From assembly GCF_016026235.1 (NCBI RefSeq), contig NZ_CP065613.1: DNA of 64,000 bases. One strand, given 5' to 3'. A program made the position numbers and the translations under genes. Positions 25,167 through 31,230 of this stretch are shown here, piece by piece. Below the pieces are notes generated by a model. The model did no database searches. It saw nothing but the letters and a program-made list of their open reading frames with translations, and was not told the DNA's origin. This DNA is from Escherichia coli. GTDB lineage: Bacteria > Pseudomonadota > Gammaproteobacteria > Enterobacterales > Enterobacteriaceae. Position 1 is the stretch's first letter, and the number at the start of each line of letters is the position of its first letter.

Positions 25167-25664
25167 TCACCGCAGCATCGTCATCAGCTCCATGGGAGAA
25201 CGATGCTGCTTTATCAGATCACGCATTACCCGCATATGCGGTGCGGAGTAAGAATAAAACGCCTGATAGCCCGCACAAAGCACGTTGTCTGGCGTCTCCT
25301 CCCGAGCGTGCGGACACAGCCGATGCCAGTCGCACGCCTGGCAGTCACGGCGCGATTGCGGGTTTTCGCTGCCACACCATTTTTGTAGGGTGGCGTCAAA
25401 AAGCTCAATCGAAATACGACTGATATCTGCCCGCACCCAACACTCAAACAGGGCAATTAAAAATTTCCCCCACAGCTCTGCTGTCACCGAAGCGGCCGTC
25501 ATATCGCCCCAGTCATCAAATTCAAGATGGGGAATAAGCTGTACGGAGCGGATGCCCCGCTGTTTGAAATTGTGATAAAAATCGGCAGGTTGCAGAGTAT
25601 CCTTATACTCTACAACCAGTTTATGCCTGTCCTCTTCAGCATCAATGACCTGACTTCCTGTCAT
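25167..25664 (-). CDS. yidF: short anaerobic-sulfatase-maturase-like protein (Cys-rich C-terminal region, no full radical-SAM core)
   Basis: 165 aa; recognised as YidF. Overlaps yidG by 4 nt. Confidence 0.8.
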   Translation of the reverse strand: MTGSQVIDAEEDRHKLVVEYKDTLQPADFYHNFKQRGIRSVQLIPHLEFDDWGDMTAASVTAELWGKFLIALFECWVRADISRISIELFDATLQKWCGSENPQSRRDCQACDWHRLCPHAREETPDNVLCAGYQAFYSYSAPHMRVMRDLIKQHRSPMELMTMLR

Positions 25665-26023
25665 GCGACTCTCTCAATAAATACGATAAGTTGATGTATA
25701 TGCGTTACAGCAAACAGTATTGCGAGAGATAACACCGCGAGGGAGATCAAAAATTTGTCACGGACTACGTGAAATTGGGAAAAATCGCTATTCGTGACAT
25801 CCATTAAATTGCGATTACGAGTGTAGTGCCAGAGGATCAGCGCCACGATGGCGAGGATGCCAATCGAAATCCAGAATAACATGCCCGCCTGGTGCCAGTT
25901 GTGTTTGATAGCCAACGCCATCAACGCGCCGTAGCCCAGCATGGTACGAAACCACGCCAGTGATGTACGCTCCGGCTGCAGCCCTGGGTCGGCAATGCGT
26001 CTGGCTTTGCGGCTATCCGGCAT
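25661..26023 (-). CDS. yidG: small inner-membrane protein (DUF202)
   Basis: 120 aa, hydrophobic; recognised as YidG. Confidence 0.8.
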   Translation of the reverse strand: MPDSRKARRIADPGLQPERTSLAWFRTMLGYGALMALAIKHNWHQAGMLFWISIGILAIVALILWHYTRNRNLMDVTNSDFSQFHVVRDKFLISLAVLSLAILFAVTHIHQLIVFIERVA

Positions 26024-26360
26024 ACAACACCAGTCCCATAACGATCACTGCTACGACCATCAATATTAAGCTGATGATTAATAAGCTGTTGGTGTAGGGC
26101 AGGTCCTCTTTCAGACGCATCGCTTTTTCATTGCGTAACCAGCGCAAGTAGCCATACATCGCTAACCCGCCGGAAAACAGACACAACAACAACGCCAGCA
26201 GTTCGCGAATGACGGGCGTGGCGAAATCTGGCGCAAGTTGATCAAGCCCAACCCCCGCCGCCAGAAATCCTAGTGCAGTACGGATCCACGCCAGAAAAGT
26301 ACGCTCATTAGCCAGCGAGAAGCGGTAATCGGGCGCTTCTCCGAGGCGGGAAATTTTCAT
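26013..26360 (-). CDS. yidH: small inner-membrane protein (DUF202)
   Basis: 115 aa, hydrophobic; recognised as YidH. Overlaps yidG by 11 nt. Confidence 0.8.
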   Translation of the reverse strand: MKISRLGEAPDYRFSLANERTFLAWIRTALGFLAAGVGLDQLAPDFATPVIRELLALLLCLFSGGLAMYGYLRWLRNEKAMRLKEDLPYTNSLLIISLILMVVAVIVMGLVLYAG

Positions 26361-26468
26361 TGTTGCTCCTTTGCAATTTCACTAACGCTCTACCTTTAGC
26401 GGTTTTTTTTAAGAATTTCGTCCGCCCGTTTCCTGATATGCTTTTGCCATCCGCTACAAGGAGGTCAG

Positions 26469-28458: not shown

Positions 28459-30170
28459 AGGCTATCCTTTGCATCGGGAGTAAAGGTTACGGCTGGGTCG
28501 TGACGATGCCGCCAGCTGTCAAAAATCAGGTAGACAATCACTACGGCGGCAATGAAATAACTGATCATCGCTAACCAGCGCGTACCGTAGCCGCCGAATT
28601 CAGCCAGCCCGGCATAGACGCCAATCATCGCGAACAGGATGCCAATTGACGCGATCTTGACGTTTTTCCACGGTTTCATGTCCACCGCAAACGCATCTTT
28701 GAAGGTGAACGGCGTGGCGCGCGGTTTGATAAAACCGATCACCAGCATCACGACCACGTTGATGCAGAACGTACAGGCCAGCACATAGAGGAAATGGAAG
28801 TCGAACTTCACCAGATAGTTGATGGTGATATAGCTGATTATGCCAATCCCCATCGCCACTTTTGCCGCCAGCGCCGGGATGCGCGGGAAGAAAAAGCCCA
28901 TAATGATGATGGTAACCAGCGGCACGTTGTAAATGCCGTTGAGCTGTTTCATCCAGCTATACAGCCCCTGCGGCGCGTTGGCGATCCACGGCGCTACCAG
29001 CACCGAAACGATAGCGATAAAGAAACCAAATTTGCGCCCGACGGTGACCAGCTGCTGCGGCTCGGCATTCTGGTTAATGATGCGACGGTAAATACCCATA
29101 CTGAATAACGTACTGGCGCTATTCAGAAAGCCGTTGAAGGTACTGATCACCGCACCAAATAACACCGCGCCGAAGAAACCCACCAGTGGCACTGGCAGAA
29201 CGTTATTGACCAGCGTCGGGTAGGCCATGTCGGCTTTCGGTAGATCCTGATACAGATGAAACGCAATCAACCCTGGCAGCACCAGTACCAGCGGGTCGAG
29301 CATTTTCAGCACCGCCGTTAACAGCGCCCCCTTTTGCCCTTCCGCCAGGCTTTTTGACGCCAGCGTGCGTTGCACGATGCCCTGATTTGTACACCAGTAA
29401 AAGGTGTTCACCAGAATTAAACCGGTAAATGCCGCGCCAATCGGCAAGGGATCGGTCGGGCCACCGACTGAGTTTAATTTCTCGGCGTGAACGGTGGTAA
29501 TTTGCTCAATGCCCTGCATAAAGCTGCCCTTGCCCATCGCGATCAGGCCAAATACCGGCACCATCAACCCGCCGATAACCAGCCCAATACCGTTGATGGA
29601 GTCCGCCACTGCCATTGCGCGCAGTCCGCCGATCACCGCATACAAAATTCCCGCCAGACCAAGCAAAATTACCAGTAGCCAGATAGCCGCACCGTGAGAA
29701 ATCTGTAGCGATTCCCCGACGTGAAACAGGCTGTTGAGCGCCAACGCGCCGGAGTAGAGAACAATCGGCAGAAAGCAGACGCCGGTGGCAATGAGGAAGC
29801 AGAAGTCGATGATAATACGCGTCGTTTTATCATAACGTTCCTCCAGAAAATCGGGGATGGTGGCAATGCCGCGCTTCAGATAGCGCGGTAAAAAGATTAG
29901 CGCGAGGAAGATCAGCGTCACCGCTGAAGTGACTTCCCAGCCCATCACCGACATGCCGCTTTTGTAGGCCTGCCCGGAAAGACCAACCAGTTGTTCCGTG
30001 GAAAGGTTGGTTAACATTAACGAAGCGGCAATAACCGGCGCTTTTAGTGAACGTCCGGCAAGAAAATAGCCTTGTTGCGATCCGGTATCTGTTTTGCGAA
30101 CCTTCCACCAGGTGATGACCGCCACCAGCAGCGTAAAACCGACAAAACTCAAGATTTGTAACGAATTCAT
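28455..30170 (-). CDS. yidK: sodium:solute symporter (SSS family)
   Basis: 571 aa polytopic protein; overlaps yidJ by 4 nt (operon). Confidence 0.9.
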   Translation of the reverse strand: MNSLQILSFVGFTLLVAVITWWKVRKTDTGSQQGYFLAGRSLKAPVIAASLMLTNLSTEQLVGLSGQAYKSGMSVMGWEVTSAVTLIFLALIFLPRYLKRGIATIPDFLEERYDKTTRIIIDFCFLIATGVCFLPIVLYSGALALNSLFHVGESLQISHGAAIWLLVILLGLAGILYAVIGGLRAMAVADSINGIGLVIGGLMVPVFGLIAMGKGSFMQGIEQITTVHAEKLNSVGGPTDPLPIGAAFTGLILVNTFYWCTNQGIVQRTLASKSLAEGQKGALLTAVLKMLDPLVLVLPGLIAFHLYQDLPKADMAYPTLVNNVLPVPLVGFFGAVLFGAVISTFNGFLNSASTLFSMGIYRRIINQNAEPQQLVTVGRKFGFFIAIVSVLVAPWIANAPQGLYSWMKQLNGIYNVPLVTIIIMGFFFPRIPALAAKVAMGIGIISYITINYLVKFDFHFLYVLACTFCINVVVMLVIGFIKPRATPFTFKDAFAVDMKPWKNVKIASIGILFAMIGVYAGLAEFGGYGTRWLAMISYFIAAVVIVYLIFDSWRHRHDPAVTFTPDAKDSL

Positions 30171-30336
30171 CTCATAGCCCTTATTTATGTTTATGTCCCG
30201 GACGCATGAATATAGGGAGAGGTAAAATGCGTCGGGTCAGGCAGTCAGATTCTTAAAATACAAACGTCGTATCCCTGAACGGATTGTTTTCTGTTAAGTT
30301 CAGGTTGTGAGCATAATTCGCTGGAGGGATATTAAA

Positions 30337-31230
30337 ATGAATGGAAAATTGCAAAGTTCAGATGTAAAAAACGAAACTCCGTACAATATTCCCTTATTGA
30401 TTAACGAAAATGTGATCTCCAGCGGAATTTCTCTGATCTCGCTCTGGCATACCTATGCCGACGAGCATTACCGGGTGATCTGGCCGCGGGACAAGAAGAA
30501 ACCGCTTATCGCCAACTCATGGGTTGCGGTGTATACCGTACAAGGATGTGGGAAAATTCTTTTAAAGAATGGCGAACAAATAACTCTGCATGGCAACTGT
30601 ATTATATTTTTAAAGCCAATGGATATTCACTCTTATCACTGTGAAGGTTTAGTCTGGGAACAGTACTGGATGGAATTTACCCCCACCAGTATGATGGATA
30701 TTCCCGTTGGTCAGCAAAGCGTTATTTATAATGGCGAAATTTATAATCAGGAACTCACCGAAGTTGCTGAGTTAATAACTTCACCAGAAACAATAAAAAA
30801 TAATCTGGCAGTCGCTTTTCTGACGAAAATTATTTATCAGTGGATTTGTCTTATGTACGCAGACGGTAAAAAAGATCCACAACGGCGGCAAATTGAAAAA
30901 TTAATTGCCACTTTACATGCCAGTCTGCAACAACGCTGGAGCGTAGCCGATATGGCTGCCACGATCCCCTGTAGCGAAGCCTGGTTGCGTCGTCTGTTTT
31001 TACGCTATACCGGCAAGACGCCGAAAGAATATTACCTCGATGCGCGTCTGGATCTGGCGCTATCGCTATTAAAGCAACAAGGAAACTCGGTTGGCGAAGT
31101 CGCTGATACGCTCAACTTCTTCGACTCCTTTCATTTCAGCAAAGCCTTTAAACATAAATTTGGTTATGCGCCTTCAGCCGTGCTAAAGAATACGGACCAG
31201 CACCCAACGGATGCCAGTCCACACAATTAA
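30337..31230 (+). CDS. yidL: AraC/XylS-family transcriptional regulator
   Basis: Trimmed to [11 protein letters not shown]... (297 aa) with GGAGGG RBS; C-terminal AraC-type HTH; divergent from yidK. Confidence 0.8.

Follow-up and report, generated by a model that had tools for sequence, protein, structure and literature searches.

Reduction and retention of YidF, an anSME remnant encoded beside a probable import and desulfation module for a sulfated sugar in Escherichia coli

Can YidF, a 165-amino-acid (aa) protein of Escherichia coli, mature the sulfatase YidJ that is encoded in the same locus? The locus, yidF to yidL, lies in a 64,000-nucleotide stretch of E. coli DNA (contig NZ_CP065613.1 of assembly GCF_016026235.1), hereafter called the window. 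A first-pass annotation of this DNA described a cryptic sulfatase module, made up of the sulfatase, a symporter, an AraC-type regulator, two DUF202 membrane proteins and YidF, a short protein resembling the anaerobic sulfatase-maturating enzymes (anSMEs). It considered YidF too short for a complete radical S-adenosylmethionine (radical-SAM) core and left the question of maturation open. As read from its sequence, YidF is an anSME from which the catalytic parts have been cut out and would be unable to perform radical-SAM chemistry; formylglycine formation by the 165-aa protein is predicted to be impossible.

The coordinates and translations of open reading frames (ORFs) were taken from the ORF list of the window, and domains were assigned through profile scans against Pfam and NCBIfam. 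The domain search that had been proposed for YidF, SPASM or twitch versus full radical-SAM, was run and gave no Pfam match, and hence no SPASM match. The anSME models of NCBIfam matched the protein below threshold only; the anSME equivalog TIGR03942 gave 74.8 bits against a cut-off of 349.45, and the alignment touched only the middle and the end of the model. Deletions were mapped by aligning YidF of the window with a 370-aa orthologue (locus L028). Three segments of L028 are missing from YidF. With residues 10–151, the C15x3C19x2C22 motif and the QGGEP SAM-binding stretch are gone. Residues 245–303 contain three cysteines, which correspond to the ligands C255, C261 and C276 of auxiliary cluster I (Aux I) in anSMEcpe, the enzyme of Clostridium perfringens. 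Residues 318–321 are four residues, one of them a cysteine, inside the CX2CX5CX3C run. The deletions sum to 142 + 59 + 4 = 205 residues, and 370 − 205 gives 165 aa. Both the ORF translation and the L028 alignment confirmed that the CxxxCxxC radical-SAM cluster motif is absent from YidF of the window, and fewer cysteines are present than the seven or eight with which a complete SPASM domain serves Aux I and Aux II. The earlier suspicion was therefore correct: YidF is too short for a complete radical-SAM core, as CxxxCxxC, the GGEP region and the Aux I ligands are missing. YidF keeps its first nine residues, beginning with MTG(C/S), and its gene still shares an ATGA with yidG; a simple N-terminal truncation of YidF was ruled out by the retention of the start codon, of these ~9 residues and of the overlap. 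The product name 'radical SAM protein', which PGAP/RefSeq gives to the 165-aa YidF, is misleading and has spread over thousands of genomes.

We then turn to the part that is retained. The locus was surveyed in one genome per species, giving 63 loci, all from Enterobacteriaceae, which were classed by tblastn and ORF tracing. An AlphaFold2 model of YidF, based on the alignment of the 63 sequences, had a pLDDT (predicted local distance difference test) of 80.8 and was confident outside the cysteine loop. As shown by Foldseek, the sole significant matches of this model in the Protein Data Bank (PDB) were the anSMEcpe structures 4k36–4k39, with E-values of 2e-6 to 2e-5 and TM(query) of 0.61–0.64. 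By this match, and by orthology of the gene after yidG across the 63 loci, YidF descends from the C-terminal half of an anSME and has its fold. Furthermore, the phmmer alignment paired C108, C111, C117 and C130 of YidF with C317, C320, C326 and C348 of anSMEcpe (4k36), which are the [4Fe-4S] ligands of auxiliary cluster II (Aux II) (PMC5715301). Among the YidF sequences, C108, C111 and C130 are invariant (63 of 63), and no reduced form has fewer than four cysteines around the site. The short forms share 27 invariant columns out of 165, and a C-terminal helix, PxMRVMRDLxxxxRSPxELM, is nearly invariant in the family. Residues 88–123 (25295–25400) showed a weak match to the C4 zinc ribbon of the ribosomal protein eL40 (PDB, E 0.03–0.1), and one short YidF from Citrobacter weakly matched Zn_ribbon_NUD (E 2e-4).

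Orthologues of YidF fall into short and long forms. Proteins of 164–178 aa, 40–50% identical to YidF, were found by protein search in Citrobacter, Klebsiella, Leclercia, Superficieibacter and Silvania. In ~25 species of the survey, the gene after yidG encodes a protein of 367–376 aa; these full-length forms occur in Citrobacter amalonaticus, C. sedlakii, C. werkmanii and C. braakii, in Kosakonia, Trabulsiella, Yokenella, Pseudocitrobacter, Kluyvera and Atlantibacter, and in Leclercia sp. 29361. They start with MTGC(Q/H)VMAKPASSRCNLxCRYC, in which CxxxCxxC reads CNL(D/R/N)CRYC, and contain a complete SPASM domain. Orthologues L028, L064 and L050 scored 484, 473 and 453 bits on TIGR03942, and L028, the sole orthologue scanned with Pfam, matched Radical_SAM and SPASM. 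The gene yidG lies upstream of yidF at all 63 loci. Many genomes with a full-length form have the order yidL <> yidK-yidJ-yidH-yidG-yidF without yidI, which is contiguous at L004, L028 and L064. This contiguous order in other genera indicates that yidHGF was originally part of the sulfatase operon; most simply, the transporter, the sulfatase, the two DUF202 proteins and a dedicated maturase made up the ancestral operon.

The reduced forms were compared for their reading frames, junctions and selection. All 36 reduced forms in the alignment, which come from 36 species, are in frame, and they have at least four different N-terminal junctions (a slash marks the junction): MTGSQVIDA/EEDRHKLVV in Escherichia, MTGCQVK/VLVTVINRQN in Leclercia and MTGCHIKAKP/VPFTLQMVV in Silvania. 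The short form of Klebsiella keeps a degenerate remnant, RHCGNCKS, and one strain of C. amalonaticus keeps CHLECRHC. The sizes of the yidF product are graded, with 360, 350, 249, 220, 192 and 165–178 aa. In a neighbor-joining tree of the common region, the short forms of Leclercia and Silvania stand beside the full-length Leclercia protein and apart from a short clade of Escherichia, Klebsiella, Salmonella and C. freundii. This placement, which is indicative only because neighbor-joining was applied to fast-evolving sequences, suggests that yidF was reduced more than once. The ratio of nonsynonymous to synonymous substitution rates (dN/dS; Nei-Gojobori) was 0.11–0.28 for yidF within Escherichia, 0.06–0.34 in 16 pairs of short forms from separate lineages and 0.06–0.21 in nine full-length pairs, so that the short forms show about twice the value of the full-length ones. 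Thus, the description of YidF as a short anSME-like protein held for its descent and understated its nature, since the protein is a conserved, reduced derivative under purifying selection.

Several loci in the survey show other states of the gene. At L044 (8503–9582; Enterobacteriaceae RIT691, 360 aa), CxxxCxxC is broken (CNLNSRCFY) and SPASM carries a 14-aa deletion. At L045 (8527–9576; Kosakonia oryziphila, 350 aa), the radical-SAM motif is intact and SPASM has a 23-aa in-frame deletion. Both are early stages of yidF decay, and yidJK is absent at both loci. At L021 (2784–4745; Escherichia albertii NBRC 107761), yidJ and yidK are lost, yidL is down to its final ~60 codons, and these lie beside glvA together with most of yidI; yidF is frameshifted, and yidG and yidH there are 98–99% identical to those of E. 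coli. No trace of yidF was seen at L070 (Enterobacter kobei, 5001–5700) or L071 (Salmonella enterica, 5001–5688), where the next gene begins 8–28 bp past yidG.

YidJ matched the Pfam family Sulfatase (PF00884) over residues 4–341 with an E-value of 3.7e-72 (243.6 bits; gathering threshold 25), together with SGSH_C. As the Sulfatase match begins at residue 4, YidJ has no signal peptide. The claimed motif CSPVCTPAR was found in the translation, and the signature P-V-C52-T-P-A-R56-A-G-L-F-T-G agrees with (C/S)xPxR followed by xxLxTG. The nearest PDB relatives are carbohydrate sulfatases (E 1e-38 to 1e-47), and relatives of several specificities, namely S1_30A, exo-2S-iota-carrageenan, choline and GlcNAc-6-sulfatase, gave similar E-values (1e-41 to 1e-47). 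In NCBIfam, YidJ is below every equivalog cut-off, with the arylsulfatase PRK13759 (218 bits) and the choline-sulfatase TIGR03417 (203 bits) at the top. The dN/dS of yidJ is 0.04.

YidK matched SSF (PF00474; 171 bits) in Pfam and the equivalog NF007790 in NCBIfam (857 bits; cut-off 401). Its top solved relatives are vSGLT (2xq2/3dh4) and human SGLT1/2, with E-values of 1e-53 to 1e-40 over ~440 residues, and PDB matches to choline and other SSS members were far weaker. A phenotype in growth on galactose has been reported for a delta-yidK strain, whose metabolome signature was of carbohydrate type (PMC5293155). YidL contains HTH_AraC (two stretches), HTH_18 and AraC_binding (residues 75–138) in Pfam and is thus a member of the AraC/XylS family. 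The yidL transcription start was mapped through 5′ rapid amplification of cDNA ends to the first base of the GTG at 30307 (PMC3950696), indicating that translation most likely starts at the ATG at 30337 and yields 297 aa. The same 297-aa form is annotated by RefSeq and listed, as a member of the AraC family, in PMC8464067. The yidL promoter is repressed by H-NS and activated by BglJ-RcsB (PMC3950696). GC content falls to 0.40–0.44 in the yidK-yidL control region, and a promoter and terminator scan detected no consensus sigma-70 site in either divergent intergenic region, yidH-yidI or yidK-yidL. The cryptic behavior is ascribed to this AT-rich control region without consensus promoters; the lack of such promoters fits silent, activator-dependent ones, and in itself it is no evidence. 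For yidJ, yidK and yidL, dN/dS was 0.02–0.05, indicating strong purifying selection and therefore working genes that are not decaying. An enrichment of yidJ and yidL among gut-associated strains has been reported for Escherichia cryptic clade II (PMC7716201).

YidG and YidH were claimed to be an overlapping DUF202 pair, and this was borne out: both matched DUF202 (PF02656) above the cut-off of 23.4 (YidH, 69.8 bits; YidG, 46 bits), and the frames overlap by 11 nt, ATGCCGGATAG, as read from the sequence. A low-confidence concatenated model suggests three long helices in each protein. YidH is 81–99% identical across genera, with a dN/dS of ~0.01, and its homologue search was saturated by near-identical proteins of Enterobacteriaceae. 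Among solved structures, YidH is related only to Vtc1 chains of the yeast VTC complex, with an alignment that spans residues 14–109, the whole three-helix domain, at E ~0.003. The pair yidHG accompanies every yidF, long or short, and it is also found by itself; many species without yidJK retain it, and 5420 of 5426 E. coli genomes carry yidHG(F), compared with 5107 for yidKJ. The occurrence of yidHG without yidJK or yidF indicates a function broader than the sulfatase module and independent of any YidF form. An obligatory linkage of yidHG with yidF was considered and dropped, as yidHG was found without yidF. YidH had also been a screening candidate for a D-alanine exporter and failed the transport assay (PMC10299036), for which reason this function was discarded. 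As a guess by analogy, YidG and YidH might take part in the export of sulfate released in the cytoplasm.

No family match was obtained for yidI in Pfam or NCBIfam. Its occurrence in the 63-locus survey is limited to Escherichia, Salmonella arizonae/diarizonae and a few Citrobacter loci, where it invariably lies between yidJ and yidH, and its dN/dS of 0.13–0.26 is second only to that of yidF in the locus. In genera without yidI, yidH directly follows yidJ. The gene yidI appears to be a lineage-specific insert by which the ancestral operon was divided. Since yidI separates yidH from yidJ, the yidHGF promoter must lie in 26361–26468. The first-pass description of yidI as divergent applies to its relation with yidH; with yidJ it is convergent.

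Taken together, we favor, as a reasonably probable reading, a silent module for the import and desulfation of a sulfated sugar, accompanied by YidF as a retained, non-catalytic anSME remnant. YidL is the presumed substrate-responsive activator of yidKJ, and its own promoter would be kept silent by H-NS. YidK would import a sulfated sugar, probably hexose-like, by Na+ symport, and YidJ would remove the sulfate in the cytoplasm once Cys52 has become formylglycine. If YidF cannot make formylglycine, YidJ must be matured in trans, presumably by AslB, YdeM or a third E. coli maturation system, which is suspected (PMC8379841, citing Benjdia 2007, a paper cited also in PMC6189696). YidF of Escherichia would consist of the last barrel strands and helices, the four-cysteine site equivalent to Aux II and the family-specific C-terminal helix, and this small protein most likely binds a metal or an Fe-S cluster and has a role other than catalysis, in which YidG and YidH may be its partners. 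The first-pass annotation had proposed an inducible pathway of uptake and desulfation. The domains fit import, cytoplasmic desulfation and an AraC-type regulator, and that part of the proposal stands; yidHG(F), however, is no longer tied to the sulfatase.

Several observations weigh against this reading. For YidF, the gene is the fastest-evolving one here, with 81–87% identity within Escherichia compared with 91–100% for its neighbors and a dN/dS 2–10 times theirs. It is disrupted at L021 (the E. albertii type strain), at L057 (Leclercia adecarboxylata NCTC13032, with an internal stop) and at L067 (Enterobacter sp. EA-1), truncated and apparently frameshifted variants occur in E. coli at low frequency, and it is dispensable, as Enterobacter kobei and Salmonella enterica have an intact yidHG and no yidF. 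Either a [4Fe-4S] cluster, as at Aux II, or, given the weak zinc-ribbon matches, zinc could be bound by the four cysteines. An AlphaFold2 model of the concatenated YidH-linker-YidG-linker-YidF (paired alignment, 22 species) reached a pTM (predicted template modeling score) of 0.39 and a mean pLDDT of 57.8, with no confident assembly. For the module, several sulfatase subfamilies are about equally distant from YidJ, so that no substrate can be named, and our literature search returned no experimental report of YidJ formylglycine, sulfate-ester hydrolysis or substrate. The same literature describes regulation of yidL's own promoter only, and none of yidKJ by YidL; YidL is a ChIP-exo candidate in PMC8464067, whose main text gives no YidL targets.

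Alternatively, YidF could be a functionless relic heading for loss, its open frame and low dN/dS being due to recent decay, translational coupling with yidG or chance, and only yidHG and yidKJ mattering. The complete losses beside yidHG, the three alleles with frameshifts or stops, the many low-frequency truncated variants in E. coli, the high rate of evolution and the graded series from 360 to 165–178 aa agree with such a relic. In contrast, the frames are intact in every aligned reduced form in spite of the diverse junctions, selection is visible in all 16 short-form pairs at only about twice the full-length dN/dS, and three cysteines and, nearly, the C-terminal helix are invariant at 40–50% overall identity. 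Moreover, the reduced clade covers Escherichia, Salmonella, Citrobacter and Klebsiella, indicating long retention. We therefore regard the relic as doubtful. In our reading, reduced YidF does have a function, though one that can be dispensed with and that is distinct from making formylglycine. A more far-reaching version, which we put forward tentatively as a possibility, is that a radical-SAM/SPASM enzyme was whittled down in at least two, possibly more, enterobacterial lineages to the same ~165-aa architecture and then maintained by purifying selection as a free-standing protein with one Fe-S cluster (or Zn) and a new task other than catalysis, possibly as a partner of YidG/YidH in anion (sulfate) handling or redox sensing.

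For yidKJ, the cargo might be something other than a sulfated sugar: YidJ could act on choline-O-sulfate, on an aryl or alkyl sulfate, or on an ester of a phosphonate or phosphate, and the solute taken up by YidK could be other than a carbohydrate. Enzymes of the alkaline-phosphatase superfamily are promiscuous, the PDB matches of YidJ include choline sulfatases, and its two top NCBIfam models are an arylsulfatase and a choline sulfatase, both well below their cut-offs. However, the closest solved relatives of YidK are all sugar transporters, the top PDB matches of YidJ are carbohydrate sulfatases and its C-terminal match is SGSH_C, and the delta-yidK phenotype and metabolome signature concern carbohydrates (PMC5293155); hence, we consider a non-sugar cargo unlikely. 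Finally, it is very improbable that reduced YidF aids YidJ maturation indirectly, as a specificity or chaperone subunit presenting CTPAR to AslB/YdeM or as an Aux II electron-exit module, because, for all that it is kept beside yidJK in Escherichia, S. arizonae, Klebsiella oxytoca/spallanzanii and Superficieibacter, that it has the Aux II-type cysteines proposed as an electron route to the protein surface in anSMEcpe (PMC5715301) and that the E. coli maturation route is incompletely known, it is equally kept without yidJK in the C. freundii complex, K. pneumoniae, Raoultella, Leclercia and Silvania, yidHGF outnumbers yidKJ among E. coli genomes, and we know of no split or trans-acting SPASM module for anSMEs.

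The sulfated-sugar reading, with YidF as a non-catalytic remnant, has several implications. E. coli is the standard host for sulfatase expression, and besides AslB and YdeM it is suspected to have a third route to formylglycine. If YidF is catalytically inert as predicted, it cannot be this third maturation system, and one candidate is removed. The intact YidF orthologues of Citrobacter, Kosakonia, Kluyvera, Atlantibacter and others offer ready full-length maturases for YidJ. The locus is nearly universal in E. coli and represents a plausible route to host- or diet-derived sulfated sugars. Furthermore, domain salvage of this kind, in which in-frame deletions have repeatedly cut a three-cluster enzyme down to a conserved one-site remnant, is unusual and, if the reading is true, would show a SPASM 'Aux II module' outliving its enzyme in nature.

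The features of the locus are listed in Table 1. All seven genes lie where the first-pass annotation placed them, as confirmed by the ORF list, and its 4-nt overlap of yidK and yidJ is present in the sequence as the common ATGA (ctATGAaa); yidG and yidF share an ATGA in the same manner (gcATGAca). The block is flanked by emrD and glvA. RefSeq gene names for yidF–yidL agree with those used here; these are already annotated y-genes of a known kind of system, and the block contains no new feature. By megablast, the 6.3-kb block is present in 5421 of 5426 complete E. coli genomes.

Table 1. Genes, motifs and intergenic regions of the yidF–yidL locus (window positions)
Feature	Position	Strand	Description
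yidF	25167-25664	-	165 aa; in-frame-deleted anSME derivative without radical-SAM core
YidF Cys108-x2-Cys111-x5-Cys117...Cys130 codons	25275-25343	-	Retained four-cysteine site, aligned with Aux II
yidG	25661-26023	-	120 aa; DUF202 three-helix membrane protein; Pfam DUF202 7e-12
yidH	26013-26360	-	115 aa; DUF202 membrane protein; Pfam DUF202 2.8e-19
yidH-yidI divergent intergenic region	26361-26468		Read from sequence
yidI	26469-26918	+	149 aa; predicted membrane protein
yidJ	26965-28458	-	497 aa; cytoplasmic Cys-type S1 sulfatase
yidJ codons for C52-T-P-A-R56, formylglycine (CxPxR) motif	28291-28305	-	PVCTPARAGLFTG, fits sulfatase signature
yidK	28455-30170	-	571 aa; Na+/solute symporter, SGLT branch
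yidK-yidL divergent control region	30171-30336		AT-rich; holds yidL promoter
yidL	30307/30337-31230	+	307/297 aa; AraC/XylS-family regulator

Other observations concern the window and its surroundings. An identity of at least 99% over the block was seen in just 43 of the 5421 genomes, indicating that the window comes from a comparatively uncommon E. coli lineage. The sole genome 100% identical over 25000–31300 is FDAARGOS_943 (NZ_CP065615.1), where the match is in two pieces and an IS1A is annotated under it. The neighboring glvA (31227–32549) is intact and encodes a 440-aa 6-phospho-alpha-glucosidase. Downstream of glvA, a glvBC-type gene of the phosphotransferase system (PTS) is split into two overlapping ORFs on the minus strand, 33067–34425 (452 aa) and 32549–33082 (177 aa); at this place in strain ABW_A19, one undivided gene encodes a 538-aa 'PTS sugar transporter subunit IIB', and the split is probably a frameshift. 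Matches at Rfam gathering score elsewhere in the window were the antitoxin small RNA istR (23032–23161, minus), beside tisB and upstream of emrD, tRNA-Sec (4038–4128, plus), the ROSE_2 thermometer of the ibpA leader (37977–38049, minus), the dnaA antisense RNA AsdA (53700–53780, plus) and ES036 (48181–48223, plus). This set is as expected for the selC-dnaA segment of the E. coli chromosome.

What is new here is YidF as a recurrently reduced, selectively retained anSME remnant with an Aux II-type site, encoded downstream of a Vtc1-like pair, and each part of the locus can be compared with a known system. Full-length YidF orthologues pass TIGR03942 and in this resemble the anSMEs, including anSMEcpe (PDB 4K36-4K39), AtsB and the E. 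coli proteins AslB and YdeM, whereas E. coli YidF differs from them in lacking CxxxCxxC, GGEP, the three upstream Aux I cysteines and one cysteine of CX2CX5CX3C. Twitch-domain radical-SAM enzymes share with YidF a SPASM domain reduced to one auxiliary-cluster site. Twitch domains lack CX2CX5CX3C and have one auxiliary cluster with the radical-SAM core kept (PMC5715301). YidF is the reverse, as it keeps the CX2CX5C...C (Aux II) half and has lost the first half and the radical-SAM core.

YidK resembles the SGLT family, to which vSGLT, the Na+/galactose symporter of Vibrio, belongs, in its top solved relatives and in the galactose phenotype of delta-yidK. In contrast to that family, it has a C-terminal extension of ~90 residues (571 aa; the match to the 527-position NF007790 model ends at residue 526), and it is coupled to a sulfatase, which would imply a sulfated cargo. 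The transmembrane domain of the yeast VTC polyphosphate polymerase-channel forms a polyphosphate-conducting pore; the likeness to its Vtc1/DUF202 domain lies in the three-helix alignment of YidH and in the DUF202 matches of YidG and YidH, whereas the bacterial proteins consist of DUF202 alone, in a paired operon, with no SPX or catalytic domain. Finally, sulfatase and maturase genes are paired in Klebsiella atsBA and in E. coli aslA-aslB and ydeN-ydeM, and the ancestral state of the yid locus likewise placed a (C/S)xPxR sulfatase gene beside that of a radical-SAM maturase. Compared with the ats, asl and yde systems, the yid locus has a cytoplasmic sulfatase whose translation is coupled to that of an SGLT-type symporter, the genes of its sulfatase and maturase are separated by two DUF202 genes, and the maturase of Escherichia is catalytically gutted, to judge from its sequence.

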